From Patescibacteria group bacterium (lineage in GTDB: Bacteria > Patescibacteriota > Patescibacteriia > JAHJFT01): a stretch of 64,000 nucleotides of DNA. The position numbers and the translations under genes are program-made. The stretch covers positions 457,864 to 521,863 of the forward strand of contig JAQTTB010000001.1 in assembly GCA_028710985.1 (NCBI GenBank), given 5' to 3'. This document shows, one piece after another, positions 1,051-54,162 of the stretch; position 1 is the first letter of the stretch; each line of letters begins with the position of its first letter. The notes under the pieces are model-generated. The model saw only the letters and a list, made by a program, of their open reading frames with translations. It was not told the origin of the DNA and made no database searches.

Positions 1051-1136
1051 GCCGGGATGGTGGAATGGTAGACACACTAGCTTGAGGTGCTAGCGGGGGC
1101 AACCCTGTGGGAGTTCGAATCTCCCTCCCGGCACCA
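1051..1136 (+). tRNA. tRNA-Leu (anticodon GAG), class II with long variable arm, CCA encoded
   Basis: Acceptor GCCGGGA/TCCCGGC; anticodon arm CTAGC-TTGAGGT-GCTAG; T arm GGGAG-TTCGAAT-CTCCC; discriminator A plus CCA. Confidence 0.85.
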
Positions 1137-1143: not shown

Positions 1144-1416
1144 ATGTTTTGTGTTTATGCAATTGATAGTTTGAATAGAAACTATATTTATATTGGCATT
1201 ACAAATAACTTGAGCCGCCGACTCCGACAGCATCAGGGCGGTAAAAATAAAACCACAGCGCCCTATCGTCCATTTAAACTGCTGTACAAAGAAGAGTATA
1301 ATACGAGAGCAGGGGCAAGGCAGCATGAAAAATATTTAAAGTCTGGCTGCGGTAAAGAGTGGATAAAGAGTAATTTTAAAAAACGCGCTAGCCTGCCTGC
1401 CGGCAGGCAGGCTTGA
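1144..1416 (+). CDS. GIY-YIG nuclease family protein (small stand-alone YhbQ/UPF0213-like)
   Basis: MFCVYAIDSLNRNYIYIGITNNLSRRLRQHQGG carries the GIY...YIG and R..H..G motifs; ATG is 8 nt after the tRNA-Leu CCA; 3' end reads through the 20-bp palindrome (LPAGRQA*). Confidence 0.8.
   Translation: MFCVYAIDSLNRNYIYIGITNNLSRRLRQHQGGKNKTTAPYRPFKLLYKEEYNTRAGARQHEKYLKSGCGKEWIKSNFKKRASLPAGRQA
1392..1411. repeat. Perfect 20-bp palindrome CCTGCCTGCCGGCAGGCAGG (family copy 1)
   Basis: Read directly; same element at 14710-14729 and as the C>T variant at 43526-43545 and 51744-51763. Confidence 0.9.
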
Positions 1417-1467
1417 GGTGCTAGTGGGGGCAACCCCGTGGAGGTTCAAGTCCTCTCCGCAGCACCA
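1412..1467 (+). pseudogene. tRNA-Leu-like 3' fragment (anticodon loop to CCA), diverged duplicate of 1081-1136
   Basis: CTTGAGGT-GCTAG-TGGGGGCAACCCCGTG-GAGG-TTCAAGT-CCTC-CCGCAGC-A-CCA; the 3' acceptor strand does not pair with any adjacent 5' half; 5' stem CTAG(C) lies immediately upstream of the palindrome. Confidence 0.5.
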
Positions 1468-14709: not shown

Positions 14710-14729
14710 CCTGCCTGCCGGCAGGCAGG
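14710..14729. repeat. Perfect 20-bp palindrome CCTGCCTGCCGGCAGGCAGG (copy 2), nested in a larger inverted repeat TCTCTCCCTC...GGGAGAGGCAGAGAGGG
   Basis: Read directly. Confidence 0.9.
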
Positions 14730-19700: not shown

Positions 19701-22700
19701 TTTATACCTGGGAGGGCTCGGACACCGCCGGCTATCAGCTCAAGACGTGGGTGCTCAAGGCGAGCGACAAGGACGCCGGCCCGTGTACCACGCTCGCGCC
19801 GGGCGGGACCTGTAATGATCCAGCCGTCGGCACCGCGGACTATGACGAGCGCGACTGCTCGGAAGATTTTAAAACCGACGCCAACTGCCGCGAATTTTAC
19901 AATACCGCCGGCGGAATTTTTTATCGCAATTATTCAGATACCATTATTTCCACCGATGAATGCTATCGCTACCGCAAAACCGAAGCAACCGGGGAGGCGG
20001 ATTGCGAATCAACCGGCGGCCAGTGGAGCGCGGCCGGAGAATGCATTTATCTGGGCTATCCGTCCGAGAGCCAGCGCTGCGGCGCCGAATCCGCGGGCTG
20101 CCGCGCCTACACCGGCCCGACGAGCCGCAATGTTGAGGAAGAATTTTTTGACGAATTTGAAAATAACACAACCCAGGATTGGCAGGGCGGGGCCGTGAGC
20201 ACCGAATCCGTCACGCTCGGCGGGCATTCGCTCAAAGCCGCGTCCGGGGCCGCGGTTTCCAAAACCTGGGAATTAACCGCGGGCGAAACTTATATTTTGA
20301 GTTTCTGGGCCAAGGGACAAGGCACGGTGGCCGCGCAAATTGACGGCGAGCCGCTCGGCAGCGTCGCCCTCGGTTCGGAATGGGCAAATTATCAGGTCGG
20401 GCCCCTGCTCATGAGTGAGGCGGGGATAGGTTCAGTGGTTAGCTTCAGCGGATTTGCGGTTGATTCGTATCTGGACAACATCCGGCTCACTCGCGTATCG
20501 GATCATCTTTATTTAATTCGCAACTCCTGGTATACGCCGATGGTGTGCGACATGAATAATCAGGGCGTCTACCTGCCGCGCGCCCAACTCGGTTGCCGCG
20601 CCTACACGGACAGCGAAAATCAGGAAAAATATTTTAAATCATTCGATCGCCTTTGCAGCGAAGGGGCGGTGGGCTGCGAAGCTTTTATTGATACTTACAA
20701 TTCCGCGTCAACCGCGAAACAGATATTCAATCAGGGAGAGGACGGCGCCGAAGTCACGGTGCCCGGCGACACGCTTTCATATTATGTATATGACGAGAAC
20801 ATGGCCTGCGGCGCCGACGCCAAAGGTTGCGAAGCGATGGGTCGCCCGATTTTGGATCAGGATGGTCATACCGTGCTCTCGTACGATGATGTATATCTCG
20901 TGAACGATCCGGAAAATTATTCCAACTCGCTCTGCCTCACCGAAGAAGCCTACTGCGACGAATTCAAGGGCGATACCGGAACTTATTATTTCAAACATCC
21001 GGAAGACAAAACCTGCGAATTTAAGGAAAAGGTGAAAATTGCCGGGCTGGAATATTCGGGTTGGTTCCGCACCGGCACCGAAGACCCGTGCTATGGGTCG
21101 TATCTCGGCGCCGGCAACTCGTACGGTATCTGGAAAAACGGCGACTCGGGCTATGACGCCTGGTACGGCAACTGCCCGGCCGACATGAGCACCTGCACCA
21201 AATTTACCGATCCAGCCGACACTTCGGCCGATGAGCCGCAGGGCAAATCATATTATTATTTGGATAACGACACGCTTGATACTAAGAGCTGCGCTGGTTC
21301 GGCCTCCAAAAGCGCGGGCTGCGCCTTATTTAACAGTACTTCAAAGTCAACCAAGACAGAAAATTCCTGGGCGACTTATCTCACGAGCGAGGACAATAAT
21401 TTCGCCGCTGTTGCCACAATCGATTGCCTCAAAAGCGATAGTCCGTATTGTACCAAGGTTTGCTTTGATAAAGAATTCGGCCCGGAAGCGTTTGTTCCGT
21501 ACCGGTTCGGCCATAACTGTCGCGATGCCGGCGACTGTTCGGGCTACAGGGGTTGCGGTGAGATTTCAAGTTTTGGCAGCAAATGGCGGCACTGGATTCC
21601 GGAACAGAATATTTATCAATACACCGGTTCGTGCGAGGCCGGTTCGGTTTGCGCGGCCGGCAATCCGGGCTGTACCGTCGGCGATCTTTGCGTGGATATG
21701 GCCAAAGAGCTCCTGCGCAATGATTCAAATGAATTATTGAAAGTCCGCCGCGACCGCGAATGCGGCGAGTGGCTGGCGTGCCGCAGTTCGGTTTCGGTCT
21801 GGGACAATGAAACGCAAAAATACAAAAAAATCTGCACCAGCCTCGGGCTTTGCGACGAGTTTGCCCCGGTCGGGGATTCCAGCGAGTGCGTTCATTTTAT
21901 TGAGAGCGAACACGCCGAAGACGTGCTTTCCGAAGCGCTTTACACCGCGCGCGATGTTTCCTGGGAAGGCCAGGATTATTCGGGCTACGCCATTCCGAAT
22001 TATTATTCCATTGACGAGCTTTCGCCCATTGATTTGAGCAGTATTGTCGCCGGTTCAAGCCTGCCGGATTTGCGCGTTGCTTATGTTGAAACCGGCTGCG
22101 GCGCCGGCGTGGCTACTGGCCAGACATGCGGAGACGCGAACGCGCTCGGCAACAAGGGTGTCTGCGTTGCCCAAAAATGCGTTTATGCCATCAACGGCGA
22201 AGCCCTGCCCACGGCCGGAACATCGGCGGAATTATATACGTCGCTTACCGCCGGGGAAAACAAATACCGCGTGGTCGGCCAGTCCTGCCGCGCTTATCCG
22301 GAAGAAGGCGCGCCGTTCCCCTCAAGCGTGGCCGAGTGGGAGAACGGAAAAATGACCACCATTGACCCCAACTTCAAACGCGCCAATATCTGCGAGCAGT
22401 CGATCTGGGAAGATCTGAACAGCGACGGCGTGCGCGATGAAAACGAAATCACGTATCAGGACTGCGAATGCGATTATCAAAAAGTTGAATTTGGAAACGG
22501 CGCGGTCACGAAATTTTATTCCACCAATGAAGTTAATATTCCCAAAGGCATCTGCCTCAATGGCCCGCGTTCCGGGCTTTCGTGCGTGCCGGGCGCGGAA
22601 TACGACGACACCCTGCCGGCCGATTCCGCGGATAATCAAAAAACCTGCGGCGCGATTACTTCGGGCGGCGCCTGCCAGGCGGTTGAGCGCGCCGACAAAT

Positions 22701-25582
22701 TCGTGGGCTGGCTCGGCCAGTGCCTGGAGCGCGATTTGCGCACGCCATTGAACGGCAGCACCGAAGATTTTGCCTGCCTGACCTGGTATCCGTCTTACAT
22801 TCTTTCCGGCGGACAGGATGTTTATAATCTTTTCCCCAATGCCGGATATAATCCGACCAACACCGGCCGCTACTGGTGCGCCGAGGCGCGGGGCATCCGC
22901 AATTCCATTGGACCGACTCGGGCTGGCGAAGATTATGAAGTCATAACGCGCGATAATATTGCCAGTACCACAAAGTGGACAAAAGATCCGCCGGGCGTAT
23001 TATTCCCCGGGGTGCTGTGCACTGGCGCTATTAATTGTCCGGATGCAACGGGCCAGGAAAAGTCCGTGTGCCACGACTTTGGTTCTTACAGCGCCTGTGC
23101 CACGGGTAAATTTTATGGCAGCTATACGGCTTCTGAAGATTCGGCCTGGAATCTTTTGGTCTATACGGCCGACACCAAGGATTATTCAGAAAGATTTTTG
23201 CCGGCAACACAATACGAAAATTATTATCTTGACGAAATCGTTGCCATTGAACTCGCGGTTGACGGCGCGCATAATCCCAAGTTGTGGCCGGATGGCCAAA
23301 ACAGTGATACTGAAGATTTTTACGAAGACGGAAACAATATATTAAGCCGCCAGAATGAAGTTGAATTGAAAAACGGATTCAAAGCCTGGGAAACAAGCTG
23401 GGGCATTCCCGAAGAAACAAAAATTCCGTCAAGCGCTCCGCCGATTCTCACGCAGGCCAATTATGCGTTTTCCGGAGAATATAAATATGAGCATGTAACC
23501 GAAGACGCTTCATGCGAAAATGATTACAGCGATTCAAAGAGCTATTTTGCCATTCGCGCCATCTTTGACGCAAACGGCAAATTCCGCGGATTTTGGACCA
23601 CAACCTGCAATGGCACAAGCAAGCCGCGCGCCTGGGTGAAATTTAAAGTCGTTTTTCACCTTGCGGAAAATTGCGAATCTGTCGCCCAGGTGGTAAAGGC
23701 GAGCGGAGAAAACAAGGCCTATACCGACCGGCTTTATCAGGCAACGAATTTTTTAATGATTGTTGGCAGCGAATATAAATATCCGCAGACTTTCGCGCCC
23801 TTTGGTTCGGCGCAAAGTTACGAGTCGCCGCTTGGCCAAAAATTGCCGTGGATTGTCGGCGATAATCGGAAAGACAAAAATTCTGTCGGTACGCCGGACT
23901 TGAGCCTGATTCCGGAAGATTACACTCTCGCCGGTTCATCCCTTGGTTGTAAGGGCGCATGCGCCAAAGAAGAACTCGATGATTTAAATTTTAATACTTT
24001 AACGCGCGCCCTGGGCAATCTTCAGCAGTTATTTACTGCGGTTTATAAAATATTTGAGTGGGAGCCGGGCTATAAACAGGGCAAATGCGAACCGTCCGGC
24101 GGCTGGTCGGAAGGAACGGGTTTCTATATTCCCTGCAATGGCGAGGGCAACACATGTGATAATGATCCGCCCGGTTCGTGCGTGCAGTCTCTTGAATGCG
24201 ATATCGGTCCGCTCGCCGGCGATCGAAATTGCGCAATAAATGATTATTGCCAGGGCGAGTCCGGATATTGCTATCCAAATCCAGACACCACTGTTTACGG
24301 CGATACCGGCGGCGGACGATATGGGGTGATTGAGGAAGGCGAAGGCATTTGCACCGGCAGCTTGCGCGGCAGCGCGCTGTGCGGCGATATTGAATACCCG
24401 GATGAGGGCACGAATAATTTTCCGTCTCCCGAGGGCACCATCAATTTAACCGTTGACGCCGAACGGGCCGGTGATGAATTCTGTCAGACTTCGGGGGTGT
24501 GTATTGATTGGCATATTAGCGATGGTCAGACAATTTATCAGTGCTATGGCGGGCTAAAACATGGCGAGTCATGCAGCGGACAAAGCGATTGCGGCATTAA
24601 TGCCATGAACGGCTTTTGCGACAGCGGTGTTTGCACGGGCGGCGGCTTTGACAGCATATCGGAAAAAGTTTTCTGTTCCGATAACTCGCAGTGCATAATT
24701 TCAAATGCCATGTGCGCGACAAATGTTTATCGCTGCAGCGACGGACTATTGTCTGGCGCCGAATGTGATCCGGGCTCAAGCATTTGCGGCCAGTCATTTT
24801 CTTGTACAGTAGACGCTGTTCCGGCAGAGCGTGACTTTTACGAAAAGAGCGTTCCGGCCTCTGTCTCCGACACGGCCGAAAGCCAGGGCGTTCCGCCGAC
24901 CGTCGCGGCCATTGATTTTACCAAATGCGATCAATCAACCGGCACCTGCCGCATTGCCAAGCTTAACGGTTTTGATGTGAACAACTGGTATTACGGCACC
25001 ATCACCGGCCAGGAACAGCTCAAGGCAACCATCCGCTTTTATGCCTGGGCCGACCATAATCAGATGCCAATTGTTTCGCGCACCGTGGACTGGGGAGACT
25101 CAAGTCCCAAAGACATGACCTCGGCGAGCAAATACAAAAACTATAAGCCTTATTGCGACAGTGATTCCCTGGAATGTTCGGACGCTCCGGGCATGACCTG
25201 CAAGACATCGAGCGACTGCCCGTCCGGCACCGGCACGTGCCAGCCGGATCTAAGCGGCGTGCCGCACTTTGGCAATGATGACAAAGCCTGCAGCGAGGGA
25301 TTTTTCCAGTTTGAACACACTTATCTTTGCGATGGCGGCGACGAGCTTGGTACTTGTCCGTTCAGCGGTTCGCCGGCTTCGTCAGACAGCATTCCGGCCA
25401 ATGGCTGCAAAACCGCGACTGCCTGTTATTACCGCCCGCGCGTCCAGGTTCAGGATAACTGGGGCTGGTGCAACGGCGACTGCAATGGATTGGGTGAGGG
25501 GTGCTATGAGGATGAATGCTTTATTACAAGGGATGATCCACATTGGACCGAGTTTGATGGCTACATCAAAATAAATAAATAA
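16748..25582 (+). CDS. Giant secreted cysteine-rich protein (2,944 aa), signal peptide, CBM-like NPSFE region
   Basis: Uninterrupted 8.8-kb ORF; start at the ATGATG 5 nt after the upstream stop; N-terminal hydrophobic signal (IVALVCFVFVCNLLLVPIHYARA); very high Cys content. Confidence 0.7.
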   Translation: MMRLKQQTMRTIVALVCFVFVCNLLLVPIHYARAQLVVTDPVTGQAVTIKNVKDFIKTLLVGVAGVAVINAANYFAQKLAYDAAVALVSGGKGQMPLFSTKGWGDYFKDASLGAVGEFVGTLSEGFEGLDLCNPGPPGLVAKLQTSLVKPYIPVGEGPEPKCEWSNISENWTEFTEDFTTGEVLQRSGVMFEPGQSPLSITLEASRNLSVQVYEMEKLKTLEREEGEGFLAKTGIISGEVQTPAQVIAQKAKDLSKSGEESQQTNVQMMGSALGAGATQILTSALGTFVNTLAGKLLEKIFNKGLISFQKKGKNTGALINPEFSLVGTREVAQEMQSDLITPPIKEAEVFDQVTDFSVCPSQFASPNNCVIDQGFSEALRREQSGTPLSVKEAINQGLLRGDWPLISSYDRARNTDIFCYTYGYCYSNLVKLRKARIVPIGWEIAAQKSGASASQITLSQAMDAFYDCGTDADGRPVVDSEHPWCHLVDPNWIIKYPLTQCRASVYGSTLLTAENSLRSETCVDSPTCIAVDDGGSCVGGWGYCTREKNTWHFDGDQCPARYESCIALEDRSGNQVSYLLNTVNYGACTSENVGCRWYAREKAGDNWTATASYNSTDKTMVATAGAIYLNKNAAECSASDAGCTEMIRATATGATLNILPNPSFETASAENPAMPENWVAARDNSKYTSAATTLDATGDKSYDGVAAVSPGTGLAAEVKLNASRFYTFSFYARTSSRATLLAGVSVLKSDRVKADLTPYYFSGTNCTRGTQFGEGGVNESVYFNQIAPPTEYARYSCTFTTPVAAASPKGYFIGQIFLYSQDGTWIDAVQLEESETVTAFHEGISSGAGSVYLKKPPEYLGCTGASTDPAECSNYLRQCLASDVGCSMYYPTNGDPALAAVATGENICPAECVGYDTFREEPSQWTAAAKFPLYLIPDTAEMCEASVVGCDEFTNLDAAEAGGESKNYFTSIRSCQKPAADSETFYTWEGSDTAGYQLKTWVLKASDKDAGPCTTLAPGGTCNDPAVGTADYDERDCSEDFKTDANCREFYNTAGGIFYRNYSDTIISTDECYRYRKTEATGEADCESTGGQWSAAGECIYLGYPSESQRCGAESAGCRAYTGPTSRNVEEEFFDEFENNTTQDWQGGAVSTESVTLGGHSLKAASGAAVSKTWELTAGETYILSFWAKGQGTVAAQIDGEPLGSVALGSEWANYQVGPLLMSEAGIGSVVSFSGFAVDSYLDNIRLTRVSDHLYLIRNSWYTPMVCDMNNQGVYLPRAQLGCRAYTDSENQEKYFKSFDRLCSEGAVGCEAFIDTYNSASTAKQIFNQGEDGAEVTVPGDTLSYYVYDENMACGADAKGCEAMGRPILDQDGHTVLSYDDVYLVNDPENYSNSLCLTEEAYCDEFKGDTGTYYFKHPEDKTCEFKEKVKIAGLEYSGWFRTGTEDPCYGSYLGAGNSYGIWKNGDSGYDAWYGNCPADMSTCTKFTDPADTSADEPQGKSYYYLDNDTLDTKSCAGSASKSAGCALFNSTSKSTKTENSWATYLTSEDNNFAAVATIDCLKSDSPYCTKVCFDKEFGPEAFVPYRFGHNCRDAGDCSGYRGCGEISSFGSKWRHWIPEQNIYQYTGSCEAGSVCAAGNPGCTVGDLCVDMAKELLRNDSNELLKVRRDRECGEWLACRSSVSVWDNETQKYKKICTSLGLCDEFAPVGDSSECVHFIESEHAEDVLSEALYTARDVSWEGQDYSGYAIPNYYSIDELSPIDLSSIVAGSSLPDLRVAYVETGCGAGVATGQTCGDANALGNKGVCVAQKCVYAINGEALPTAGTSAELYTSLTAGENKYRVVGQSCRAYPEEGAPFPSSVAEWENGKMTTIDPNFKRANICEQSIWEDLNSDGVRDENEITYQDCECDYQKVEFGNGAVTKFYSTNEVNIPKGICLNGPRSGLSCVPGAEYDDTLPADSADNQKTCGAITSGGACQAVERADKFVGWLGQCLERDLRTPLNGSTEDFACLTWYPSYILSGGQDVYNLFPNAGYNPTNTGRYWCAEARGIRNSIGPTRAGEDYEVITRDNIASTTKWTKDPPGVLFPGVLCTGAINCPDATGQEKSVCHDFGSYSACATGKFYGSYTASEDSAWNLLVYTADTKDYSERFLPATQYENYYLDEIVAIELAVDGAHNPKLWPDGQNSDTEDFYEDGNNILSRQNEVELKNGFKAWETSWGIPEETKIPSSAPPILTQANYAFSGEYKYEHVTEDASCENDYSDSKSYFAIRAIFDANGKFRGFWTTTCNGTSKPRAWVKFKVVFHLAENCESVAQVVKASGENKAYTDRLYQATNFLMIVGSEYKYPQTFAPFGSAQSYESPLGQKLPWIVGDNRKDKNSVGTPDLSLIPEDYTLAGSSLGCKGACAKEELDDLNFNTLTRALGNLQQLFTAVYKIFEWEPGYKQGKCEPSGGWSEGTGFYIPCNGEGNTCDNDPPGSCVQSLECDIGPLAGDRNCAINDYCQGESGYCYPNPDTTVYGDTGGGRYGVIEEGEGICTGSLRGSALCGDIEYPDEGTNNFPSPEGTINLTVDAERAGDEFCQTSGVCIDWHISDGQTIYQCYGGLKHGESCSGQSDCGINAMNGFCDSGVCTGGGFDSISEKVFCSDNSQCIISNAMCATNVYRCSDGLLSGAECDPGSSICGQSFSCTVDAVPAERDFYEKSVPASVSDTAESQGVPPTVAAIDFTKCDQSTGTCRIAKLNGFDVNNWYYGTITGQEQLKATIRFYAWADHNQMPIVSRTVDWGDSSPKDMTSASKYKNYKPYCDSDSLECSDAPGMTCKTSSDCPSGTGTCQPDLSGVPHFGNDDKACSEGFFQFEHTYLCDGGDELGTCPFSGSPASSDSIPANGCKTATACYYRPRVQVQDNWGWCNGDCNGLGEGCYEDECFITRDDPHWTEFDGYIKINK

Positions 25583-26421: not shown

Positions 26422-27009
26422 TTATTTACACGGATCAAGAATGTTTTTCCAATTTTTGGGATTATTTTTGATGTAATTCGTAATGCGTCGTAAATCCCAT
26501 GCGTCGCGGACGATGTGGTCATAATATGAACGTTGCCATTGAAAATATTCATCCTCGTTTTGATTCGCGATTCGGGTAACCGCGGATTTAAATTCATGGA
26601 TAATTTTTGGCAACAACATTTTATCCCGTTGTACGTCGCGTTGTACGTCGCGTTGTAGGGGTCGCATATATGCGACCCCTACGTCCGTCCATTGCCCGCC
26701 ATGCGAATCGTCCACCCCGTCCGTCCATTGCCCGCCGTACGCATTCCGAATAAATATTAATCCATGAAAATGGTCGGGCATAACAATGTATTGCCCCAAA
26801 TCAATATTCGGAAAATGAATTGGTAAATAATTCCAACATCGGTCCGCGATTTCACCAATCGCTGAACGCCGCATTTCATTTTTTACAATATTTCCAAAAA
26901 AACATTTTTTTCCATCGGTACATATTGTTACATAATATATACTCGGGCGGGAATAATCGCGTTTTTGATATCGGTTTCGTTTTCGCGCGCGTTGATTCAT
27001 GTTAATCAT
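26422..27009 (-). CDS. IS200/IS605-family HUH (Y1) transposase / REP-associated tyrosine transposase (RAYT)-like
   Basis: YYVTICT..., HUH motif MPDHFHGLI, C-terminal WQRSYYDHIVRD; gene contains tandem GTTGTACGTCGC repeats and a 28-bp perfect palindrome GTAGGGGTCGCATATATGCGACCCCTAC. Confidence 0.65.
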   Translation of the reverse strand: MINMNQRARKRNRYQKRDYSRPSIYYVTICTDGKKCFFGNIVKNEMRRSAIGEIADRCWNYLPIHFPNIDLGQYIVMPDHFHGLIFIRNAYGGQWTDGVDDSHGGQWTDVGVAYMRPLQRDVQRDVQRDKMLLPKIIHEFKSAVTRIANQNEDEYFQWQRSYYDHIVRDAWDLRRITNYIKNNPKNWKNILDPCK

Positions 27010-27961: not shown

Positions 27962-30004
27962 ATGAAGGTTGTGCATTTCGTCGCGCTCATCGCGGCCATG
28001 ATTCTCATCTGCGGCTGCGAAACCCGCTACGACATGGAGGAGAGTCCATCCGACGAGGGAGGTCCGGCCGGCGAACGCCGTCTGCCCTTCCTTCCGAACA
28101 CCACGGTCACGGTCTCGCAGGGGAATGACCAGGCCGATCCGGCGAGTACGCACTATCGCTTGGGCGCGCTCGCCAAAGCCGTGGACTTTACGGCCGGACC
28201 CGGCTGCGAAGATCGGGGAGTGCCGATTATCGCGGCCGCCGGCGGCACGGTGATTGAAGCGGTTGCCGGCTTAGCCGACCGGTCCGGAACCGGCACCGGC
28301 AATCATGTCTACGTCCGCTACTCCGACGGCCGCGTTGGCCGTTATTTTCATCTTCGCGACGTCATGGTGCGCCGCGGCCAGCCGGTTCTTGAGGGCCAGG
28401 CGCTCGGCACCATGGGCACGAGCGGTTACTCAACCGCGTGCCACCTGCATTATGACGAGGTGGCCGACGGCTCGTCGCAGACCCTGCCGCTGAACTTTCT
28501 GGAATCCGACGGCGTGCCGCAGGAAGGCCGTTCGTACTCATCCCGCAACACCGGTCCGTACGACCGCGCCTACTGGTCAGCCGGCGGCCCCTCCATGCTC
28601 GGCGAGCCGAGCGAAGAGGCGCGCTGGTACGATTCATACGCGCGCTGCGCGGACGATGACGGCGACGCGGATTTGCTCTGCGACAATGAATCCGCGCATC
28701 GCGCCAATATTCACATTCTGCCGTTTGAGGGTGGCCTGGTCGGCCGCGCCGCACTGGTCTACGACGCTCTGCGCGGCGCGCGCGAAGCGGTCATAATTCA
28801 TGGCCGTCTGTACGATTGGTATATGGCGAGCCACGGTCCGGCATCGCCATTCATCGCGCCCCTGAACAACGAATACGTTGATTCGGCCGGCGACACGCGG
28901 CAAGACGGCATCGGAGGATATCTCTCCTGGGACGGCGCGAACGCGAGCTTTCATGCCTGGCCGGATGATGCCGCACCCGGTGAGATTGCCGGGCCATCGG
29001 CGTGGAATCGGCTCGCGAGCTATGCCGTGGTTGAAGCGTATAACGCGCTTGGCCGCGAAACGCTGGCCGGCGAACCGGTTGCTCAATTCGGTAATCCGGC
29101 CGAACTGCATCTCTGGAGCGGATATCGTTATCTAGTGCAGGACTTTAACGGCGGTCCGCACGGCTGGTTCGTGATTTTCTACGATTCCGAGAATTATGCT
29201 TACGGCGGCGCAAATCGCGCCATCTCGGTCATGGACCAGTTCTGGGGATATTACATCACCCATGACGGCGAGCGCCATTTCGGCGCGCCGATCTCGGCCG
29301 CCTACATCGATTCCGCAAGCGGCAAGCGCCGCATGGATTGGGAGAGCGGATTCTGCCTTCTCGCCCAAGGCGAAGCGGTTGAGCAGGGAACAATGTCCGC
29401 GGCTCCGGTGCCCGGATATTTACCCAATGCGAGCATCTGCCAGATTTCCGGCGGCACAACACCGCCTGAACCCGAACCCCATGATCCCGATAACGACGTC
29501 GACGGCTACACCATTGCTGAAGGCGATTGCGATGACACAAATCCGCTCATTAATCCCGACGCGGTTGAGATTTGCGACGACGGCCGCGACAACGACTGTG
29601 TCTGGGGAGTGGACTGCGACGATCCGAATTGCGCCGACGATCCGCATTGCGCGACCCCGCCCATGCCGGTTGATCGTCTTGTGGTGCGCTACACCGCGCC
29701 GGCCGCATTTTCCGGAACCATCATCTACTCCGACTGGAGCGGATACTCGGCCGGCGGCACTCTGCGCGCGCCGTGGGCCGAACGCTGCCGCGCCGCAAGC
29801 GGCTCGTCCCTTGAGTGCGAGCTTGATCAGCCCGCCGGCACCTTTGCGGTTTTCAACATCCAGTACGGTTCATCCTGGGCCTGCGCCAACTGGCCGGCGA
29901 GCACGGGCGGAACGATCAGCCTCACCTGGCGGGGCATCTCTTACTCCGCGATTCCCGAAGCCAATGGTTCAGGCGGCTGCAATTTTCGCGTCAGTCTTTA
30001 CTAG
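27962..30004 (+). CDS. M23-family (LytM-like) peptidase lipoprotein with C-terminal myxobacterial-type Cys-rich metal-binding repeat
   Basis: GNHVYVRYSDGRVGRYFHL...GTSGYSTACHLHYDE (M23 HxxxD/HxH motifs); later DPDNDVDGYTIAEGDCDDTNPLINPDAVEICDDGRDNDC; very GC-rich. Confidence 0.75.
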   Translation: MKVVHFVALIAAMILICGCETRYDMEESPSDEGGPAGERRLPFLPNTTVTVSQGNDQADPASTHYRLGALAKAVDFTAGPGCEDRGVPIIAAAGGTVIEAVAGLADRSGTGTGNHVYVRYSDGRVGRYFHLRDVMVRRGQPVLEGQALGTMGTSGYSTACHLHYDEVADGSSQTLPLNFLESDGVPQEGRSYSSRNTGPYDRAYWSAGGPSMLGEPSEEARWYDSYARCADDDGDADLLCDNESAHRANIHILPFEGGLVGRAALVYDALRGAREAVIIHGRLYDWYMASHGPASPFIAPLNNEYVDSAGDTRQDGIGGYLSWDGANASFHAWPDDAAPGEIAGPSAWNRLASYAVVEAYNALGRETLAGEPVAQFGNPAELHLWSGYRYLVQDFNGGPHGWFVIFYDSENYAYGGANRAISVMDQFWGYYITHDGERHFGAPISAAYIDSASGKRRMDWESGFCLLAQGEAVEQGTMSAAPVPGYLPNASICQISGGTTPPEPEPHDPDNDVDGYTIAEGDCDDTNPLINPDAVEICDDGRDNDCVWGVDCDDPNCADDPHCATPPMPVDRLVVRYTAPAAFSGTIIYSDWSGYSAGGTLRAPWAERCRAASGSSLECELDQPAGTFAVFNIQYGSSWACANWPASTGGTISLTWRGISYSAIPEANGSGGCNFRVSLY

Positions 30005-38709: not shown

Positions 38710-40521
38710 ATGGACGCACTGACCACAACCCGCTATCTTCCGAGATCGGTAAAAACATATTTGGGTTCGGCTGAAGTGACGGATATCAATATTGATATCA
38801 AAAAAAAGTTTGATTTGCGGGAAAGGGAACTTGATATTCTCTTTGAACTCACCTGGGATATTCTGGAAGGTCGCCGCGCGCCGCGCGCCCTGGCTTACGA
38901 GCTCAAGGCGCAGATAAAATGGCAGGAAAAAAAAGCCGCTGAAGTTGCGCTGGAAATCCTTGGACGAAAACTTTTGCCCCTTTCCAATCTTATCCCCGGC
39001 ATTCCGGAAGCGATTAAAGATCTCGGCGCTGATCCGGCCAAGTATCCGCAGAAAAAAATCACGTCCGATCAGACGACCCTGCCGGTTTTTGTGGATGAGA
39101 TGATCCGCGATCTCGGCATCCAGCTCGCCGACAAATTTTTGAAACACCGGCTTGAGAATGTTGCCGAAGCAAAAATCAAAGGAGTGCGTGATGATTTTGA
39201 AACAAAAGAAAGAATGGTCCGTGGAATAAAAATCGGTGGGCTCGAGCTCGCCCCGACACAGGCTGACCAAATTATCGCCTACATCGAATCTGCGAAGAAA
39301 ACCATACAAATCGTTGACCGCCCATCCGCTCCGACAGCGGTTGGGGGAACGGCTCCAGCCGTAGCGATTCCGCTGTCAAGGATGCCGGCCGAGTCCGAAG
39401 TGCCGGAAGAAATCACGAGACATGAAACCGGAACCGCCGCGCCTTTCGCCATGCGCCCCGAGGATGTCGCTGAAATCCACGCCGAGCGGGGCCGGGAAAT
39501 CTCGGATGCCGTTTTGCCGGAGTACGAACGAGTAGATAAAGATATTATAAAAGATTCAGGATTCAGTTTTTCCGATCCGGATATGCAAAAGCGTTTTGAA
39601 AACACGGTTCGCGCGCGCGTGCGTGATGTGCGCGACGAACTGGAGACAAAAAATATACTGACCCGCGGGCCCAAAGAGGGCGGACTCGGCTTGCCTAAAG
39701 AAAAATCCGACCGCCTCATCGCTCTCATCAATCAAAAAGTCGGACCCCTTCGCCTGAAACTCGCGAAAATCGAAGAGCAAAAAAAGGCTGAACATCTCGT
39801 GAGAGAAAAACGAAATCGGGAAATCGGCCGCGAGAGGGAAGAGGAGAACTTGAATCGCCGCTACGCCAAACTTACCGGACGAATGCCGAGCTCGATGCCC
39901 AGTGAAGAAAAAAAACCGGAACGAACCCTGCCCTTAAAAGACCATATTATTAAGCCGAGCGCTCCGGTGATAAAACCGGTCGCCCAAGTTTCGGTCGTGA
40001 CAGCCGTGATTCCGCAAGAGCCGGGATTACCGATGACGATTGTGCCGGTCCCGATCGCGATCGGGACGCCGGTCCGCCCGGCATCTCGTCCGGAATCGCT
40101 AAAGCCCAAGGTTCGCGTCTCGCCGCCGAGTATTCCGGCGCAGACGTCGCAAACCGGCCGGCCGCGCGTTGAAGAAATAAAGTTTTCGCGCAGGCTGTTC
40201 GGGCCGATTGAGGAATTGCGCGAAATGAAGTTTGAAGATTTTCGCCGCCTGTCGCGCGAACCGCGGGAACGCGCCATTAAGATAAAGGACAAGATAGATC
40301 TCCTGGGCGAAGAATCATTTGAGAAAAAAATGCAGGGCATCGCCGCGTGGCAAGAGAGCCCGATTAATAAACTGTATCTGAATTTAATACAGGAAGCGTT
40401 CCAGACCGGCAAGAACATTGAGACAATTACGCGCGAACGTGAAGCCGCCGGCCGTTCGACGCTTTCATGGGACGAATTCCAGTCAATTATTGAGCTAAAT
40501 CAAAATTTAGGTAAAATTTAA
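38710..40521 (+). CDS. Hypothetical charged/helical protein (603 aa) within the T4SS-like operon
   Basis: No TM; K/E/R-rich. Confidence 0.45.
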   Translation: MDALTTTRYLPRSVKTYLGSAEVTDINIDIKKKFDLRERELDILFELTWDILEGRRAPRALAYELKAQIKWQEKKAAEVALEILGRKLLPLSNLIPGIPEAIKDLGADPAKYPQKKITSDQTTLPVFVDEMIRDLGIQLADKFLKHRLENVAEAKIKGVRDDFETKERMVRGIKIGGLELAPTQADQIIAYIESAKKTIQIVDRPSAPTAVGGTAPAVAIPLSRMPAESEVPEEITRHETGTAAPFAMRPEDVAEIHAERGREISDAVLPEYERVDKDIIKDSGFSFSDPDMQKRFENTVRARVRDVRDELETKNILTRGPKEGGLGLPKEKSDRLIALINQKVGPLRLKLAKIEEQKKAEHLVREKRNREIGREREEENLNRRYAKLTGRMPSSMPSEEKKPERTLPLKDHIIKPSAPVIKPVAQVSVVTAVIPQEPGLPMTIVPVPIAIGTPVRPASRPESLKPKVRVSPPSIPAQTSQTGRPRVEEIKFSRRLFGPIEELREMKFEDFRRLSREPRERAIKIKDKIDLLGEESFEKKMQGIAAWQESPINKLYLNLIQEAFQTGKNIETITREREAAGRSTLSWDEFQSIIELNQNLGKI

Positions 40522-41626: not shown

Positions 41627-43579
41627 ATGCCATTCCGACCAAAAGAAGCCGTTGCTCCTGAAGCCAAAACCGGCGCGGTTGCGCCGACCGGCCGCATCGT
41701 GCGGCGCGAGGCCGAGGCGCGCGCCGAGGCCGAGCGAGAACGCATCGTACTTGAAGAAGAGCGCATTTATCGCCGCGGTGTTGTTTCCATCCGCGACCTG
41801 ATCGCGCCGGCCGCTTTTGAAGTAAAACCGAACTATCTCCGGCTCGGCGACAGCTTTTGCCGCACGATTTTTATTGTCACTTATCCGCGCTATGTTTCGG
41901 TTGGATGGGCGACGCCGGTTATCAACTATAATCACACCCTGGATATCGCCATGTTTTTCTATCCAGTCAAGGCGCCGATAATTTTAAAACAGCTCAAGAA
42001 TAAAGTCGGCGTTCTGGAGGCCCAGATCATGGCCGATTCGGAAAAAGGCGCTCCTCGCGATCCGATTCGCGAAACCGCACTCCGCGACATTGAACAGCTT
42101 CGCGACGACCTGACGCAGGGGATTGAGCATTTTTTTCAATTCGCTTTGTACATTACGATTTACGCGAAAGATGTTACGGAACTGGATAAGATATCAACCG
42201 ATATCGAAACCATCTTCGGTTCAAAATTGATTTATTCCAAGCGCGTTCTTTATCAGTCCGAGCAGGGCTTTAATTCCACTGTGCCGCTCGCGAACGACGA
42301 GCTCATGATTACCTTCAATATGAACACCTCGCCGATTGCTTCGTCGTTCCCGTTCACTTCGGCCGAGCTTACTTCGGACAACGGCATACTCTACGGAATA
42401 AACCGCCACAACAACAGCCTGATTCTCTTTGACCGTTTCTCCATGCCGAACGCCAACATGGTTGTTTTTGCCACTTCCGGCGCCGGCAAGAGTTATGCCG
42501 TAAAACTGGAAATCTTGCGCAGCCTGATGCTTGGCACGGATGTTCTCGTCATTGATCCGGAAATGGAATACAAGCACCTTTCCGACGCGGTCGGCGGCAC
42601 CTACATCAATATTTCCCTGGCTTCGGAAAGCAAGATTAATCCGTTCGATCTGCCGCGGCCCATGGGCGAGGATATCAGCACCGAGGATATTATCCGGAGC
42701 GCCGTAATTACTCTCAAGGGTTTGCTCCGCATCATGCTCGGCAAGCTCACTACGGCCGAGGATTCGCTTTTGGATCGCGCGCTTCTTGAAACCTATGCTA
42801 AGCGCGATATTACGCCAAGTTCCGATCTTTCTACCGTCGAGCCGCCGATTATGCAGGATTTGCAGGAAGTGCTCGAGGGCATGGAAGGTACCGGCGATTT
42901 GGTTGTCCGGCTCAAGAAATTCACTGACGGCACATTTGCCGGTCTCTTGAACTCGCCGACCACGGTCACTATGAAAGCCCAGCTCGTGGTCTTCAGCGTG
43001 CGCGATCTTGAGGACGAGCTCCGTCCGATTGCTATCTATACCATCATCAACTACATTTGGAATGTCGTGCGCTCGGAGAGCAAAAAACGCATTCTCACGA
43101 TTGACGAAGCCTGGTGGCTGATGATGCACGAGGACAGCGCAAAATTTATTTTCGCCTTGGTCAAACGCTGCCGGAAATACTATCTCGGCATTACCACCAT
43201 CACGCAGGATGTTAACGATTTTTTGTCCAATCCGTACGGCCGCTCTATTGTCACTAACTCCTCAATGCAGATTCTGATGAAACAGTCGCCGGCCGCGGTT
43301 GATTTGGTGCAAAAAACTTTTCTTCTCACCGAGGGGGAGAAATATCTTCTTCTTGAGTCCGCGGTCGGAGAGGGGATTTTCTTCGCCGGCACAAAGCACG
43401 CGGCGATCAAGGTGGTTGCTTCGTATACCGAGGACCAGCTCATTACCACCGACCCGCGCCAGCTCTTGGAAATAGAAGAATCAAAAAAGCAATTCGCCGA
43501 AGAGGTGCTCGGTCAGTCCGAAGCCCTGCCTGCCGGTAGGCAGGGCGCTTCCGGGGAACCCCCAGCAATAAATATCTAA
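41627..43579 (+). CDS. VirB4/TraC-family type IV secretion ATPase (middle and ATPase domains)
   Basis: IAPAAFEVKPNYLRLGDSFCRTIFIVTYPRYVSVGW; Walker A FATSGAGKS; Walker B ILTIDEAWWLM; C-terminus carries the palindrome insert (EALPAGRQGAS). Confidence 0.8.
   Translation: MPFRPKEAVAPEAKTGAVAPTGRIVRREAEARAEAERERIVLEEERIYRRGVVSIRDLIAPAAFEVKPNYLRLGDSFCRTIFIVTYPRYVSVGWATPVINYNHTLDIAMFFYPVKAPIILKQLKNKVGVLEAQIMADSEKGAPRDPIRETALRDIEQLRDDLTQGIEHFFQFALYITIYAKDVTELDKISTDIETIFGSKLIYSKRVLYQSEQGFNSTVPLANDELMITFNMNTSPIASSFPFTSAELTSDNGILYGINRHNNSLILFDRFSMPNANMVVFATSGAGKSYAVKLEILRSLMLGTDVLVIDPEMEYKHLSDAVGGTYINISLASESKINPFDLPRPMGEDISTEDIIRSAVITLKGLLRIMLGKLTTAEDSLLDRALLETYAKRDITPSSDLSTVEPPIMQDLQEVLEGMEGTGDLVVRLKKFTDGTFAGLLNSPTTVTMKAQLVVFSVRDLEDELRPIAIYTIINYIWNVVRSESKKRILTIDEAWWLMMHEDSAKFIFALVKRCRKYYLGITTITQDVNDFLSNPYGRSIVTNSSMQILMKQSPAAVDLVQKTFLLTEGEKYLLLESAVGEGIFFAGTKHAAIKVVASYTEDQLITTDPRQLLEIEESKKQFAEEVLGQSEALPAGRQGASGEPPAINI
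43526..43545. repeat. Palindrome-family copy 3, CCTGCCTGCCGGTAGGCAGG, in-frame inside the VirB4 CDS
   Basis: Read directly; the same 24-mer is present in the clpC-like gene in the same gene-relative orientation. Confidence 0.9.
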
Positions 43580-51594: not shown

Positions 51595-54162
51595 TTAATC
51601 GCTTATGCTTGCGGAAAAACTGAACTTTCCCCGCGATAAGCTGACTTTAACCGTATCTCCTTTGTTTATTTTACCATTTAAAACCATTTCGGACAAAGGA
51701 TTTTCCACCAAGTTTAGCAGAGTTTTCCGGACGGCGCGCGCGCCCTGCCTACCGGCAGGCAGGCCGTCGCCGGCGTCAATGCAGCGGTCCGCGAGCGCCG
51801 GCACGATATTGAAGTTAAATTTAATACGCACGCCGCGGCTTTCCGCGCCAACGGCGATTTGATTAAGTTCTTTCTTTATGATGCTTTCAAGCGCCGTTCG
51901 ATCCAGGGAATTAAAGTAAATAATTGCGTCGAGCCGGTTTAGCAGTTCGGGCCGGATGCAGTCCTTGAGCCGGGCGTCCAAATCCTTTTTCAGATCGTCG
52001 AATTTCATCATTTCCCCATCTGGCCCGCTAAAGCCGATGCGGCCGGTTCCGGCGTCATAGCCAGCGTTTGAAGTAAGGATGATGACAGTATTTTTGAAAT
52101 TGATTTTCCGGCCGCTCGCATCGGTAATTTCGCCTCGGTCAAGAATCTGGAGCAGGAGAGCCTGCACATCGGCGTGGGCTTTATCAAATTCGTCAAAAAG
52201 AACCACGGCATAGGGTTTTTTCCTGACCTCGTCGGTGAATTTATTCCTTTCCTTGTATCCGATATAGCCGGCCGGCGAGCCCAGGAGCTTGGATGCCGAA
52301 TAGGATTCTTTGTATTCTGACATATTAATAAGCACGAGCGCGTCTTCGCGCGGATATATTTTTGCCGCGAGCGTGCGCGCGAGCTCGGTCTTGCCCACGC
52401 CGGTCGGTCCGACAAATAGAAAAGAGGCGAGTGGCCGCGTCGGATCCGAAAATCCGGCCTTGGCGCGGGAAAGCGCGGCGACAAGCTCGTCAATCGCCCG
52501 GTCCTGGCCGATGATGGTCTGGCTAAGCGCGTTTTTTAATTCAAAAAACTTCTGATCGCCGCTCGTGAGTTCCTGAGCCGGAATGCCAAGCTGCCGGGAT
52601 ATTACTTCCATAATGTGGCGGTCGGTGAGCTTGCCGTAGGATAGATTATTGCCTTCAGCCTCCTGCCGCGCGGTAATTACCGCGCGTTCAAGTTCTTTTT
52701 CTTTTGTCTTGAGGTCAATCGCTTCGGAATAGCGCTCGTCCAAAACCGCCCGCTGTTTAAGTTCGCGGACTTTATTAAATTCGTTTTCCAGCGCGCGGAT
52801 GCGGACAAGCCGCGGGTCAGCCGGCTGGGAAATTTTTATTCCGGACGCCGCTTCGTCAACGAGATCAATCGCTTTATCCGGCAAAAATTTATCGGAGAGA
52901 TAGCGCGTTGAAAGTTCAACTGCCGCGCGGATTGCTTGGTTGCTGATTTTAATTCGGTGAAATTTTTCATAATTCGGTCGGATTCCTTCAAGGATGTGCA
53001 CGGTCTCTTCCTTGCTCGGTTCGCGCACCACGATAGTTTGAAAACGTCGTTCAAGCGCCGGGTCGGATTCAATATGTTTTTTATATTCATCCAGTGTGGT
53101 CGCGCCGATGCACCGCAGTTCGCCGCGCGCGAGGGCCGGTTTCAGAATATTGGCCGCGTCAAGCGAGCCGGCGGTTGAGCCCGCGCCGATGATATTGTGC
53201 ACCTCGTCAATAAAAACAATCAGATTCTTATCGTTGCGGATTTCCTCAATAATCTGTTTGAGTCGCGATTCAAATTCGCCGCGGTACATGGTGCCGGCGA
53301 CGATGAGCGAAAGATCCAGGGCCAGAATTTTTTTGTCGGCAAGTTCGTCCGGCACTTCACCGAGCGTGATTCGTTTCGCGAGTCCCTCAACAATCGCGGT
53401 CTTGCCCACGCCCGGCTCGCCGATCAAAAGAGGATTATTCTTGTGTCTCCGGCAGAGAATCTGCATCAGCCGGACAATCTCATCCTGGCGTCCGATTAGG
53501 GGATCGATTTTTTTCTGCATTTCCGGAGATGTGAGATCAATGGAAAAAAAATCAAGCGCCGGAGTTTTTGATTTATCGGTTTGCCGGTAGGCAGAGTGCG
53601 CGTCCAGTCCGAGTTCTTCATCCACGACTTCCGCGTCAATCGGTTCGGCGGGCAATGCGCCGATGCCCGGCGCTTCGCCGCGGTCCGCAATTTCGGTAAA
53701 GCGGGACGCCATTTTCAGAATATTCTCAATCTGGTTTTTCAGTTTCGCAAGATCGACATGCTGCGCTTTGAGTTCGCGGATTATTGCCGCATCCCGGATC
53801 TCCATGAGACCGAAAAGAAGATGCTCGGTGCCCACGTACTTGTGCGAGAAAAGATTTGCCGCCAGCACCGCTTTTTCAATCGCTCGTTTTGCGTCCGGCG
53901 AAAGAGTCGGCGTGGGATTTTTTATTTTGGTTGCCGTGTCGCCCGGATTTTCGGAAGAAATATTTTTCCGTTGTCCGGCCGAGGGCCTGAAGTTCGTTTT
54001 GTTGATGATTTCATGAGCGATTGATCCGCGCTGTCCGGCAAGCGCGTTCATGAGCCCGAGCGGTTCAATATTTTTTTGATAATTCAAAATCGCGGCCTCC
54101 ATCGCTCGCGCGAGAACCTGTTTCAAATTTGTAGAAAATTTATCCAAGATGTCAATTTCCAT
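51595..54162 (-). CDS. Clp/Hsp100-family ATPase, ClpC-like (two Clp_N repeats, two AAA+ modules, short UVR-like middle region)
   Basis: LIGEPGVGKTAIVEGLA (Walker A1), LIVFIDEVH, FLFVGPTGVGKTELARTLA (Walker A2); about 330 aa between the two Walker A motifs; C-terminus carries the palindrome insert (GLPAGRQGARA). Confidence 0.85.
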   Translation of the reverse strand: MEIDILDKFSTNLKQVLARAMEAAILNYQKNIEPLGLMNALAGQRGSIAHEIINKTNFRPSAGQRKNISSENPGDTATKIKNPTPTLSPDAKRAIEKAVLAANLFSHKYVGTEHLLFGLMEIRDAAIIRELKAQHVDLAKLKNQIENILKMASRFTEIADRGEAPGIGALPAEPIDAEVVDEELGLDAHSAYRQTDKSKTPALDFFSIDLTSPEMQKKIDPLIGRQDEIVRLMQILCRRHKNNPLLIGEPGVGKTAIVEGLAKRITLGEVPDELADKKILALDLSLIVAGTMYRGEFESRLKQIIEEIRNDKNLIVFIDEVHNIIGAGSTAGSLDAANILKPALARGELRCIGATTLDEYKKHIESDPALERRFQTIVVREPSKEETVHILEGIRPNYEKFHRIKISNQAIRAAVELSTRYLSDKFLPDKAIDLVDEAASGIKISQPADPRLVRIRALENEFNKVRELKQRAVLDERYSEAIDLKTKEKELERAVITARQEAEGNNLSYGKLTDRHIMEVISRQLGIPAQELTSGDQKFFELKNALSQTIIGQDRAIDELVAALSRAKAGFSDPTRPLASFLFVGPTGVGKTELARTLAAKIYPREDALVLINMSEYKESYSASKLLGSPAGYIGYKERNKFTDEVRKKPYAVVLFDEFDKAHADVQALLLQILDRGEITDASGRKINFKNTVIILTSNAGYDAGTGRIGFSGPDGEMMKFDDLKKDLDARLKDCIRPELLNRLDAIIYFNSLDRTALESIIKKELNQIAVGAESRGVRIKFNFNIVPALADRCIDAGDGLPAGRQGARAVRKTLLNLVENPLSEMVLNGKINKGDTVKVSLSRGKFSFSASISD
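51744..51763. repeat. Palindrome-family copy 4, CCTGCCTACCGGCAGGCAGG on + (CCTGCCTGCCGGTAGGCAGG in gene sense), in-frame inside the clpC-like CDS
   Basis: Read directly. Confidence 0.9.

Follow-up and report, generated by a model that had tools for sequence, protein, structure and literature searches.

How do two unrelated ATPase genes of one bacterium come to share an identical, palindromic stretch of coding sequence that is read in the same frame in both? We address this question in a 64,000-nucleotide stretch of a Patescibacteria genome (GenBank assembly GCA_028710985.1, contig JAQTTB010000001.1, forward-strand positions 457,864 to 521,863; hereafter the window), in which an original prediction, made from the letters alone, had singled out a 24-mer, CCTGCCTGCCGGTAGGCAGGGCGC, in a VirB4-like and a ClpC-like gene. 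Our comparisons trace this likeness to a 20-nt palindrome, called P below, that appears to have entered both genes as an insertion, recurs across phyla, and is linked to a family of small GIY-YIG nuclease genes, one of which lies in the window and is probably its partner.

The window contains exactly two copies of the 24-mer, at 43525-43548 (+), one base below the coordinate first proposed, and at 51740-51763 (-), where shuffled sequence is expected to contain none. As predicted, both copies are exact, both lie on the sense strand of the host open reading frame (ORF) in the same frame, and both are translated LPAGRQGA. The VirB4/TraC-like ORF (41627-43579, +; Pfam TraG P-loop/AAA_10/DUF87) ends in ...SEALPAGRQGASGEPPAINI followed by the stop (...QSEALPAGRQGASGEPPAINI, stop); its last residues are thus GEPPAINI and not, as had been written, GEPP. 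The peptide was said to lie near both C-termini, which holds for this tail, whereas the ClpC-like ORF (51595-54162, -) carries ...GDGLPAGRQGARAVRK... (...DAGDGLPAGRQGARAVRK...) with the peptide at residues 800-807 of 855, about 50 residues from the end and within the ClpB_D2-small domain (Pfam, residues 753-840).

The repeated unit is a palindrome of 20 nt, rather than 24 nt; the near-perfect 20-bp core had been recognized correctly, and the additional GCGC is target sequence. Its perfect form, the C variant, is CCTGCCTGCCGGCAGGCAGG (CCTGCCTGCCGGYAGGCAGG), that is (CCTG)2CC/GG(CAGG)2, and both genic copies are the T variant CCTGCCTGCCGGTAGGCAGG, with T at position 13. As single-stranded DNA (ssDNA), P is computed to fold into an 8-bp stem with a 4-nt loop at -8.0 kcal/mol, and the T variant at -7.0. 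The two perfect copies announced in the original prediction are present, which gives four copies in 64 kb, or about one per 16 kb:

43525..43544, + strand: solo P, T variant, read in frame as LPAGRQ within the VirB4/TraC-like ORF, whose C-terminal tail here is hypervariable
51744-51763, - strand: solo P, T variant, within a 21-nt in-frame insertion of the ClpC-like ORF
1392..1411, no strand: P, C variant, distal boundary of a GIY-YIG/tRNA cassette
14710..14729, no strand: solo P, C variant, intergenic, between ORFs 13474-14490 and 14797-16122

All four sites lie within local palindromes. The intergenic copy sits in the loop of a larger hairpin, TCTCTCCCT...AGGGAGAGG (about 14701-14744), whose flanks fold at -14.9 kcal/mol when P is removed; the insertion site is the loop-proximal end of the 5' strand of the stem, one base pair off a 4-nt loop. 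Rfam has no match at this copy. A half-site had also been placed at 53583-53597. It lies at 53581-53594 (+; TTGCCGGTAGGCAG) and is ruled out as part of the element, being a 14-mer with one mismatch of a kind expected by chance 0.65 times per window; in the alignment with ClpC homologues, the only length change there is a 2-aa difference in a variable linker.

Alignment of the window ClpC protein with its 39 best homologues, the closest 69% identical, indicates how this copy arose. The window protein alone has seven extra residues, reading DAGDG-LPAGRQG-ARAVRK against DS--GEGARAVRK, and LPAGRQG (aa 798-804) is its sole specific insertion longer than 2 aa across the whole protein. In the closest relative (L181; L numbers label DNA stretches compared with the window) the empty site is gac tct ggg gaa ggc gcc cgg, where the window has gac gcc ggc gac ggc (ctg cct gcc ggt agg cag ggc) gcg cgc. 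The insert thus measures 21 nt, P plus one base, and directly precedes the GAR motif (sensor 2) in the D2-small domain. Its ends are ambiguous within a 23-nt span, 51742..51764(-), in which a GGC triplet stands on both sides of the 18-nt core CTGCCTGCCGGTAGGCAG, and the site without the 21 nt is a perfect 18-bp palindrome, GACGGCGCGCGCGCCGTC.

The VirB4 copy agrees with this picture. LPAGRQGA occurs in none of 120 VirB4 homologues, at identities of up to 89%, and the relative L182 has unrelated tail sequence at the position of P. There is no clean empty site, since the tail carries further indels against the closest relative; read from the sequence, the site without P is a 12-bp palindrome, GAAGCGCGCTTC. 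The identity of the two genic copies for 4 nt past P is explained by the target, as GCGC in ClpC encodes codons of the conserved G-A-R motif and both targets are GC-rich palindromes. On these alignments, which were one of the checks proposed with the original prediction, the genic copies are secondary insertions and not ancestral protein sequence, as that prediction held. We infer that both are best seen as tolerated passengers with no function for the host proteins, which would sit in the loop before the sensor-2 helix of ClpC and in a disordered tail of VirB4.

P is not confined to the window. In an exact-match scan covering one genome per species we found it at at least 120 genome loci in about ten phyla. 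Among the matches listed, Patescibacteria are represented by Parcubacteria, Saccharibacteria, WWE3, Uhr-, Wolfe-, Doudna- and Daviesbacteria, and other carriers include Bacteroidota, Omnitrophota, Planctomycetota, Nitrospirota, Chloroflexota, Bdellovibrionales, Ignavibacteriaceae and uncultured gamma- and delta-proteobacterial metagenome-assembled genomes. Cultured isolates carry it as well (the Bacteroidota Winogradskyella echinorum, Flagellimonas yonaguniensis and Olivibacter oleidegradans), and so do long-read assemblies. IMG/VR contributes another 47 stretches from viral contigs; the largest number of copies on any one contig, of 29.5 kb, is six. Together these are more than 160 unrelated loci, and the sequences flanking P are unrelated between them. 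By this comparison, P is a dispersed, cross-phylum element and neither a local duplication, which had been named as an outcome that would overturn the prediction, nor a peculiarity of the source genome. Rfam searches of the window and the cassettes described below, at gathering and permissive thresholds, returned tRNAs only, a literature search for the sequence of P and its peptides returned nothing relevant, and as far as we found the pairing of P with a GIY-YIG gene has not been described previously.

The manner in which P sits in DNA is most evident where filled and empty versions of a site can be compared. A phage tRNA-Met gene on viral contig L151 (P at 2284-2303) reads ...CACGAGG/P/TCGCCGG..., and the syntenic L184 (12794-12829) and L185 (6831-6866) have the empty ...CACGAGGTCGCCGG..., a difference of exactly 20 nt with no duplication. 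Removal of P in silico restores a tRNA that ARAGORN recognizes as normal, and the junction then falls at position 45, within the variable loop; with P as an extra variable-loop arm and otherwise intact, this tRNA might still be functional. Equally exact insertions are seen in tRNA fragments set against the adjacent intact gene, in L052 (GGTAGA/P/GCAGCGGC), in L093 (GGTGGCG/P/GAACCGG) and in the tRNA-Leu fragment of the window (GCTAG/P/CTTGAGG), the last again of 20 nt and with no target duplication. Direct repeats of at least 7 nt flank 2.7% of 185 distinct copies, compared with 0.1% of controls, and all of these copies lie in tandem heptamer-like arrays. Such arrays, with units such as GTGAGAG/GTTAGAG and apparent direct repeats of 7-14 nt, enclose P in L122/L160, L124, L130 and L150. 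Solo P therefore enters DNA as an insert of exactly 20 nt and leaves the target unduplicated. Together with the ClpC insertion of seven codons and the number of unrelated loci, the exact filled/empty pair bears out the view of a short mobile or copied palindrome.

P lands preferentially at hairpin-forming DNA: in loops, at stem-loop junctions, in tRNA arms and in the centre of P itself. Inverted repeats of at least 7 bp flank the site within 6 nt in 5.9% of cases against 0.7% of controls, and 26% of the flanks without P, compared with 14%, reach a folding energy of -10 kcal/mol or below (Mann-Whitney p = 0.007). Stem length and folding energy were the only measures to discriminate; whether the junction falls in a loop of the minimum-free-energy hairpin did not (38% against 39%). 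At individual loci, P occupies the exact centre of another P (L020, L026, L059, L065 and L109), a terminator loop (L110), a fixed place within other repeats (L145/L146 and L147/L156), and tRNA D-loops, anticodon loops and variable loops. Solo copies also stand in the loops of GGAT(T/C)C...GAATGAC-type hairpins (L012 3450-3560, L030, L045, L100 and L216, the last in an NTS-like ATTCCCGC...GCGGGAAT hairpin), which follow another clade of small GIY-YIG genes and resemble SRM/NTS; the two hairpin families are thus nested in each other. A search for a target consensus gave only a weak preference, for a purine at -1 and, for the T variant, against A at +1. Intergenic T variants have no orientation bias relative to transcription (5 sense, 8 antisense), so that no argument at the RNA level, from G-U rather than A-C pairing, can be made.

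Besides ClpC and VirB4, Pfam-verified hosts of P are FtsK, ribosomal protein S6, a class-I TrpRS-type synthetase, a histidine-kinase HATPase_c domain, a PMT_2 glycosyltransferase, a sugar dehydratase and ScpB. In nine of ten verified genes P is read as LPAGRQ; the exception, an HsdS/GIY-YIG fusion (L089), reads PACRQAG, and both frames other than LPAGRQ contain Cys. The original prediction had suggested that the element inserts without breaking the frame. This is not a property of P, since 20 nt is no multiple of three and the ClpC copy, the only coding copy with a measured insert length, needed one extra base to keep the frame; selection probably filters coding insertions. Its other suggestion was a site for targeting that coding DNA tolerates; this too may hold in part, should the hairpin be what the GIY-YIG nuclease recognizes.

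Two of these loci merit separate mention. In L089 (2751-4892) the ORF for HsdS, a type I restriction specificity protein, contains P and, about 40 nt beyond it, an entire GIY-YIG domain, all in one reading frame. In L097 (2-1552 and 1540-3774), tandem paralogous histidine kinases both have ...GEGQG-LPAGRQ-GE... in the ATPase domain, with one peptide copy decayed to LPGGRQ, and P adjoins a second type of repeat (CCCTCTCC..GGAGAGGG plus TCAGGG); this insertion looks old and looks to predate the duplication of the kinase gene.

Which gene, if any, accompanies P? When ORFs within 1 kb of P were clustered across loci, a small GIY-YIG family was the sole recurrent one, with ten matches in 168 P-bearing loci, eight of them within 150 nt of P, which establishes a statistical link between P and this nuclease. 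In the window, the P copy at 1392-1411 stands in the following setting:

1051..1136, + strand: intact tRNA-Leu(GAG), the functional tRNA of the cassette (ARAGORN; Rfam RF00005, 56.5 bits)
1144..1416, + strand: single-domain GIY-YIG nuclease gene, 90 aa (Pfam PF01541, E = 1.1e-16, residues 1-67)
1412..1467, + strand: displaced tRNA-Leu 3' fragment, from the anticodon loop CTTGAGG to CCA (by comparison with the tRNA at 1051-1136)

P lies exactly between GCTAG and CTTGAGG, anticodon-stem bases of the displaced fragment, and encodes the last codons (LPAGRQ) of the nuclease ORF. The fragment is a remnant and no functional tRNA, as its acceptor strand is unlike the one in the intact gene; neither ARAGORN nor Rfam calls it. 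An intron-containing tRNA at 1347-1467, with GCTGCGG pairing with the 3' acceptor, was considered and rejected, as GCTGCGG encodes the SGCGK motif of the nuclease, which is conserved and recurs in homologues. AlphaFold models residues 1-82 as a compact GIY-YIG core (pLDDT 94), with the Slx1 nuclease domain and UPF0213 BH0048 as the nearest solved folds, and we collected 4623 representative homologues at E <= 0.001.

The window cassette (1051-1467), in the order tRNA-Leu, ORF, P and displaced 3' fragment, is the mirror image of the usual one. We examined the DNA of eight homologues found through the protein, five of these loci having been picked blind to P, and six of the eight share a constant anatomy: a tRNA fragment A (positions 1 to about 21, ending ...G(G/T)(C/T)AGA), an exact or near-exact P directly after it, a second fragment B' that restarts at the 3' D-stem (CGCGC or CACGC) and reaches the anticodon loop at most, the ORF, and an intact tRNA-Leu. 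The D-arm junction is ...AGA/P/C(G/A)C. Three of the five blind-picked loci have this anatomy, and no others of the five retain a clear 5' remnant. L168 combines a B' of Leu(CAA) type with a resident Leu(TAG) gene, an indication that B' moves together with the cassette. The arrangement recurs with tRNA-Lys (L052 and L162) and tRNA-Arg (L025). A metagenome scan for any 15-35-nt insert at the D-arm site of tRNA-Leu fragments left two candidates unclear; of its 11 clear hairpin inserts, ten are P or derivatives of it (seven exact, and three derivative in two loci), and among the nine P-bearing loci an ORF lies downstream in six and is absent in two. The hairpin repeat thus flanks the nuclease gene, P usually being on one side only. 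We further note that P is 100% conserved in cassettes whose proteins share only 55-68% identity, which indicates that it is either conserved or continually renewed.

Gene calls at these cassettes carry traces of P. ORF extensions translate it in 5 of 21 close homologues and in 22 of 149 cluster representatives, where VAELVDLPAGRQAR... is a translated tRNA D-arm with P, and in six of the representatives P is at the 3' end, as in the window. Entries P0245-P0247, P0251, P0254 and 22 of P0262-P0410 have spurious N-terminal peptides such as VAELVDLPAGRQAR or GIGRPACRQAG, because gene callers extend the GIY-YIG ORF upstream through P and the tRNA fragment. Two contexts are less typical. In L054 (861-1270), the D-loop site of a tRNA-Val fragment is taken up by a hairpin other than P, of 33 nt (CCCGCCCGTACCGAACGGGTACGTTCGGGCGGG), and a truncated GIY-YIG ORF lies downstream of it; 3' of the intact tRNA-Val lies an insert of about 170 nt with P, bounded by a duplicated tRNA 3' end. 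In L170 (530-1414), and likewise in the metagenomic L171 and L172, the P/GIY-YIG/tRNA-Leu cassette is directly downstream of smpB and the tmRNA gene.

A precedent for such a pairing is the Ssn family, whose members are single-domain GIY-YIG proteins of about 94 aa that bind a hairpin repeat (NTS/SRM) exclusively on ssDNA and cleave immediately upstream of the repeat (Chenal et al. 2025, Nat Commun 16:2388, PMC11893778). The repeat borders the gene in 71% of homologues, hundreds of copies are solo, only 2% of NTS lie in genes, and the authors remark on an architecture like that of insertion sequences (IS) and an analogy with REP/RAYT (PMC11893778). The likeness to our system is close: a single-domain GIY-YIG protein of about 80-95 aa (90 aa in the window) without a DNA-binding domain, a gene flanked by a hairpin-forming inverted repeat of 20-50 nt, what may be a comparable dispersal of solo copies (P occurs four times in the window and up to six times on one viral contig), an IS-like arrangement spread over many phyla, and one P copy placed in the loop of an NTS-like hairpin (L216). 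The systems differ in that the gene partnering P sits in a tRNA cassette with partial tRNA duplication and P in the D-arm, and tRNA is not mentioned in PMC11893778. They also differ in that two of the four window copies are in host genes, with another supplying the final codons of the nuclease ORF, and in that one P 20-mer is common to phyla without co-varying with its nuclease. The conserved C-terminal motif of the window clade, EKYLKSGxGKEWIK, differs from its counterpart REKQLKNWRRNWK in a GIY-YIG ORF beside SRM-like hairpins (L012), a hint of a sister clade.

Taken together, these observations lead us to think it rather likely that P is a hairpin repeat and the cis partner of a clade of GIY-YIG proteins of about 80 aa, the ClpC, VirB4 and 14710 copies being solo, as would be many others dispersed through such genomes. 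The complete unit would be a cassette at a tRNA gene, made of a displaced tRNA fragment with P in an arm, the nuclease ORF and the intact tRNA. By analogy with Ssn and NTS/SRM, the nuclease would bind the P hairpin on ssDNA and nick beside its foot, spread would take place at a single-stranded stage of replication or transcription and into exposed loops, and host repair or ligation would complete the insertion; the joining would fall to host functions since GIY-YIG enzymes only hydrolyse. In coding sequence, only frame-restoring versions would survive, at tolerated places. A more far-reaching version, which we offer tentatively and regard as possible rather than likely, is that P and the gene of about 80 aa constitute a new type of mobile element acting on ssDNA, with an autonomous cassette of about 330-450 nt that colonizes and restores tRNA genes and a 20-nt hairpin end that spreads alone, aimed at hairpin loops. 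Were this true, the lone hairpin end would perhaps be the smallest non-autonomous mobile DNA known, and its aim at loops and not at sequence would explain how P enters tRNAs, terminators, repeats and essential genes in many phyla and in phages.

Several findings weigh against a partnership of this kind. The nuclease gene adjoins only about 5% of P copies, two of the blind-picked cassettes (L173 and L178) have no P, and in L054 and L203 the D-loop site used by P holds another hairpin. The enrichment at hairpins is moderate, most copies lying in no obvious pre-existing hairpin. P falls outside the SRM consensus HGTCWYN(0-2)YYVSBRHN(0-5)WNVSBRGN(0-2)RNCYNB; a regular-expression scan matched it to P in none of three contexts and found no match near any P-type cassette. 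P is a symmetric palindrome without orientation, whereas NTS is directional, and from its sequence the window protein may belong to a sister clade of Ssn (cd10448). GIY-YIG enzymes, moreover, hydrolyse DNA and cannot themselves join it.

It is accordingly worth asking whether P could be moved by other machinery, such as an HUH/Y1 transposase, template switching during replication, or a repair pathway, with its presence in the cassettes secondary: neutral hairpins of tRNA fragments might trap P, or a strong hairpin might be selected there, for instance because it stabilizes the nuclease mRNA or breaks up a direct repeat able to delete the cassette. We regard this as unlikely, though it is the most serious of the rivals. 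The roughly 95% of copies that have no nuclease gene nearby would be expected under it, as would the occurrence of P in D-loops, anticodon loops and variable loops alike, the other hairpins at the D-loop site (L054 and L203) and the ORF-less A-P-B' remnants in L044, L216 and L301. It accounts poorly for the use of one D-arm position in nearly all cassettes, far above random capture at about one P per 16 kb, and for the constancy of P while the proteins diverge; nor does a second protein family recur near P, and the two also keep company outside a tRNA context, in frame in the hsdS gene of L089. Selection by the host for a cis signal, acting in DNA uptake, recombination or protein binding and enriched by selection or biased repair in the manner of the HIP1 palindrome or of uptake sequences (USS/DUS), would suit a 20-mer that is kept letter for letter between phyla, is found both inside and outside coding sequence and has a frame bias in genes, and the Ssn/NTS system does modulate transformation in Neisseria (PMC11893778). 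We nevertheless hold such a signal to be improbable, given that the copies are clean 20-21-nt indels and not accumulated point changes, that a repeat nested in itself and inserted into tRNA genes and essential proteins bears the marks of a parasite, that four copies per 64 kb is a low density for uptake sequences, and that the cross-phylum range speaks against a host-specific signal.

The two remaining explanations concern the window itself. A purely local event, be it gene conversion or duplication between ClpC and VirB4, or a functional motif LPAGRQGA, would fit the 24/24 identity that extends 4 nt beyond P and the sharing of the T variant, and one window copy could still have templated the other. 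As a sufficient explanation it is refuted by the recurrence of the 20-mer at more than 160 unrelated loci and within numerous unrelated proteins, by the peptide's absence from homologues and by the origin of the extra GCGC in the targets, both GC-rich palindromes, that of ClpC supplying the GAR codons; we consider it very improbable. That the repeat is an artefact of sequencing or assembly (adapter, chimeric junction or palindrome-induced misassembly) is hardly credible, even though the window comes from a metagenome-assembled genome and palindromes can cause artefacts: P is found in isolate genomes and long-read assemblies from many projects, reading frames are kept in conserved genes, P is translated in called proteins of 22 independent cluster representatives, and filled and empty alleles occur in syntenic contexts.

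Placed among known repeats, P is ordinary in kind, a selfish hairpin repeat; what sets it apart is how small it is, that it does not vary between phyla and that its targets extend to tRNAs and essential proteins. In behaviour it appears closest to the small dispersed repeats (SDRs) of Nostoc. These are hairpin-forming sequences of 21-27 nt that insert precisely, that form several families of imperfect palindromes within one cyanobacterial group, that are nested in other repeats and in heptamer tandem arrays, and for which reportedly no encoded enzyme was identified. For one of them, SDR5, precise insertion within the HIP1 palindrome is reported in PMC4390886. P seems alike in being nested, in lying in heptamer arrays (L122/L160) and in occupying palindrome centres, and differs in being one exact 20-mer across phyla with a gene partner, and in its taxa. 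In its effect on proteins, P seems closest to the Rickettsia palindromic elements. These measure about 100-150 bp, are specific to the genus and occur also in RNA genes, and reportedly no nuclease partner was defined for them at their description. They share with P the in-frame insertion into coding genes, and they differ in that P is 20-21 nt and unrelated in sequence.

REP/REPIN sequences are hairpin repeats read on ssDNA by a small RAYT (Y1/HUH) enzyme whose gene is flanked by the repeat (discussed in PMC11893778; see also PMC3116915). P resembles REP/RAYT and IS200/IS605 in lacking a target duplication and, on the reading favoured here, in combining an autonomous gene with non-autonomous hairpins. 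It differs from REPs, which are extragenic and species-specific, in starting with CCTG and lacking the conserved GTAG 5' foot, and clustering of neighbouring ORFs revealed no Y1 transposase recurring near P. The GC clusters and repetitive hairpin elements in mitochondria of fungi, sponges and algae (for example PMC2800124 and PMC4524435) are small GC-rich hairpins that invade intergenic regions and occasionally genes. Here the difference is that they are organellar, heterogeneous in sequence and without a conserved partner gene. Miniature inverted-repeat transposable elements have terminal inverted repeats and a target-site duplication of fixed length, and no duplication accompanies P in the filled/empty pair or the tRNA remnants. 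HIP1-type iterated palindromes are 8 nt long and enriched by substitution or selection, not insertion, in contrast to the clean 20-21-nt indels of P.

Other features of the window lie outside this comparison. Further perfect 20-nt palindromes occur in coding sequence at 40048-40067 (GTCCCGATCGCGATCGGGAC) and 52667-52686 (CGCGCGGTAATTACCGCGCG), and alignment with ClpC homologues reveals no insertion at the latter. A perfect 28-nt palindrome at 26655-26682, GTAGGGGTCGCATATATGCGACCCCTAC, has the ends GTAG...CTAC, which resemble those of REP elements, with the direct repeats cgttgtacgtcg (twice) upstream and cgtccgtccattgcccgcc (twice) downstream, and a stretch similar to this region, GTAGGGGCGCA..., lies upstream of the L168 cassette. 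A single ORF of 2988 aa spans 16616-25582 (+). The GC fraction at 28001-30000 is 0.63, against about 0.50 elsewhere in the window, and this interval coincides with the ORF at 27962-30004.

How tiny hairpin repeats multiply is a long-standing question, raised by REP, dRS3/NTS, SDR, Rickettsia palindromic elements and organellar GC clusters, and P offers clean material for it: an invariant 20-mer, filled and empty sites without duplication, and a preference for hairpin-loop targets. There are practical advantages as well, in one recurrent partner gene whose product is of an easily purified size and in cultured Bacteroidota hosts. LPAGRQ and its two sister frames serve as a marker of P insertions in protein databases, where P-containing ORF extensions are a recurrent annotation artefact. 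If the activity proposed for the nuclease is true, it would supply a useful reagent, an enzyme that acts specifically on a perfect 20-nt palindrome in ssDNA. For the GIY-YIG family, these findings extend the pairing of Ssn-type proteins with hairpins to a new motif and to a new niche, tRNA genes with partial duplication, and to hairpins written into tRNAs and into essential proteins such as ClpC, FtsK, S6 and TrpRS.

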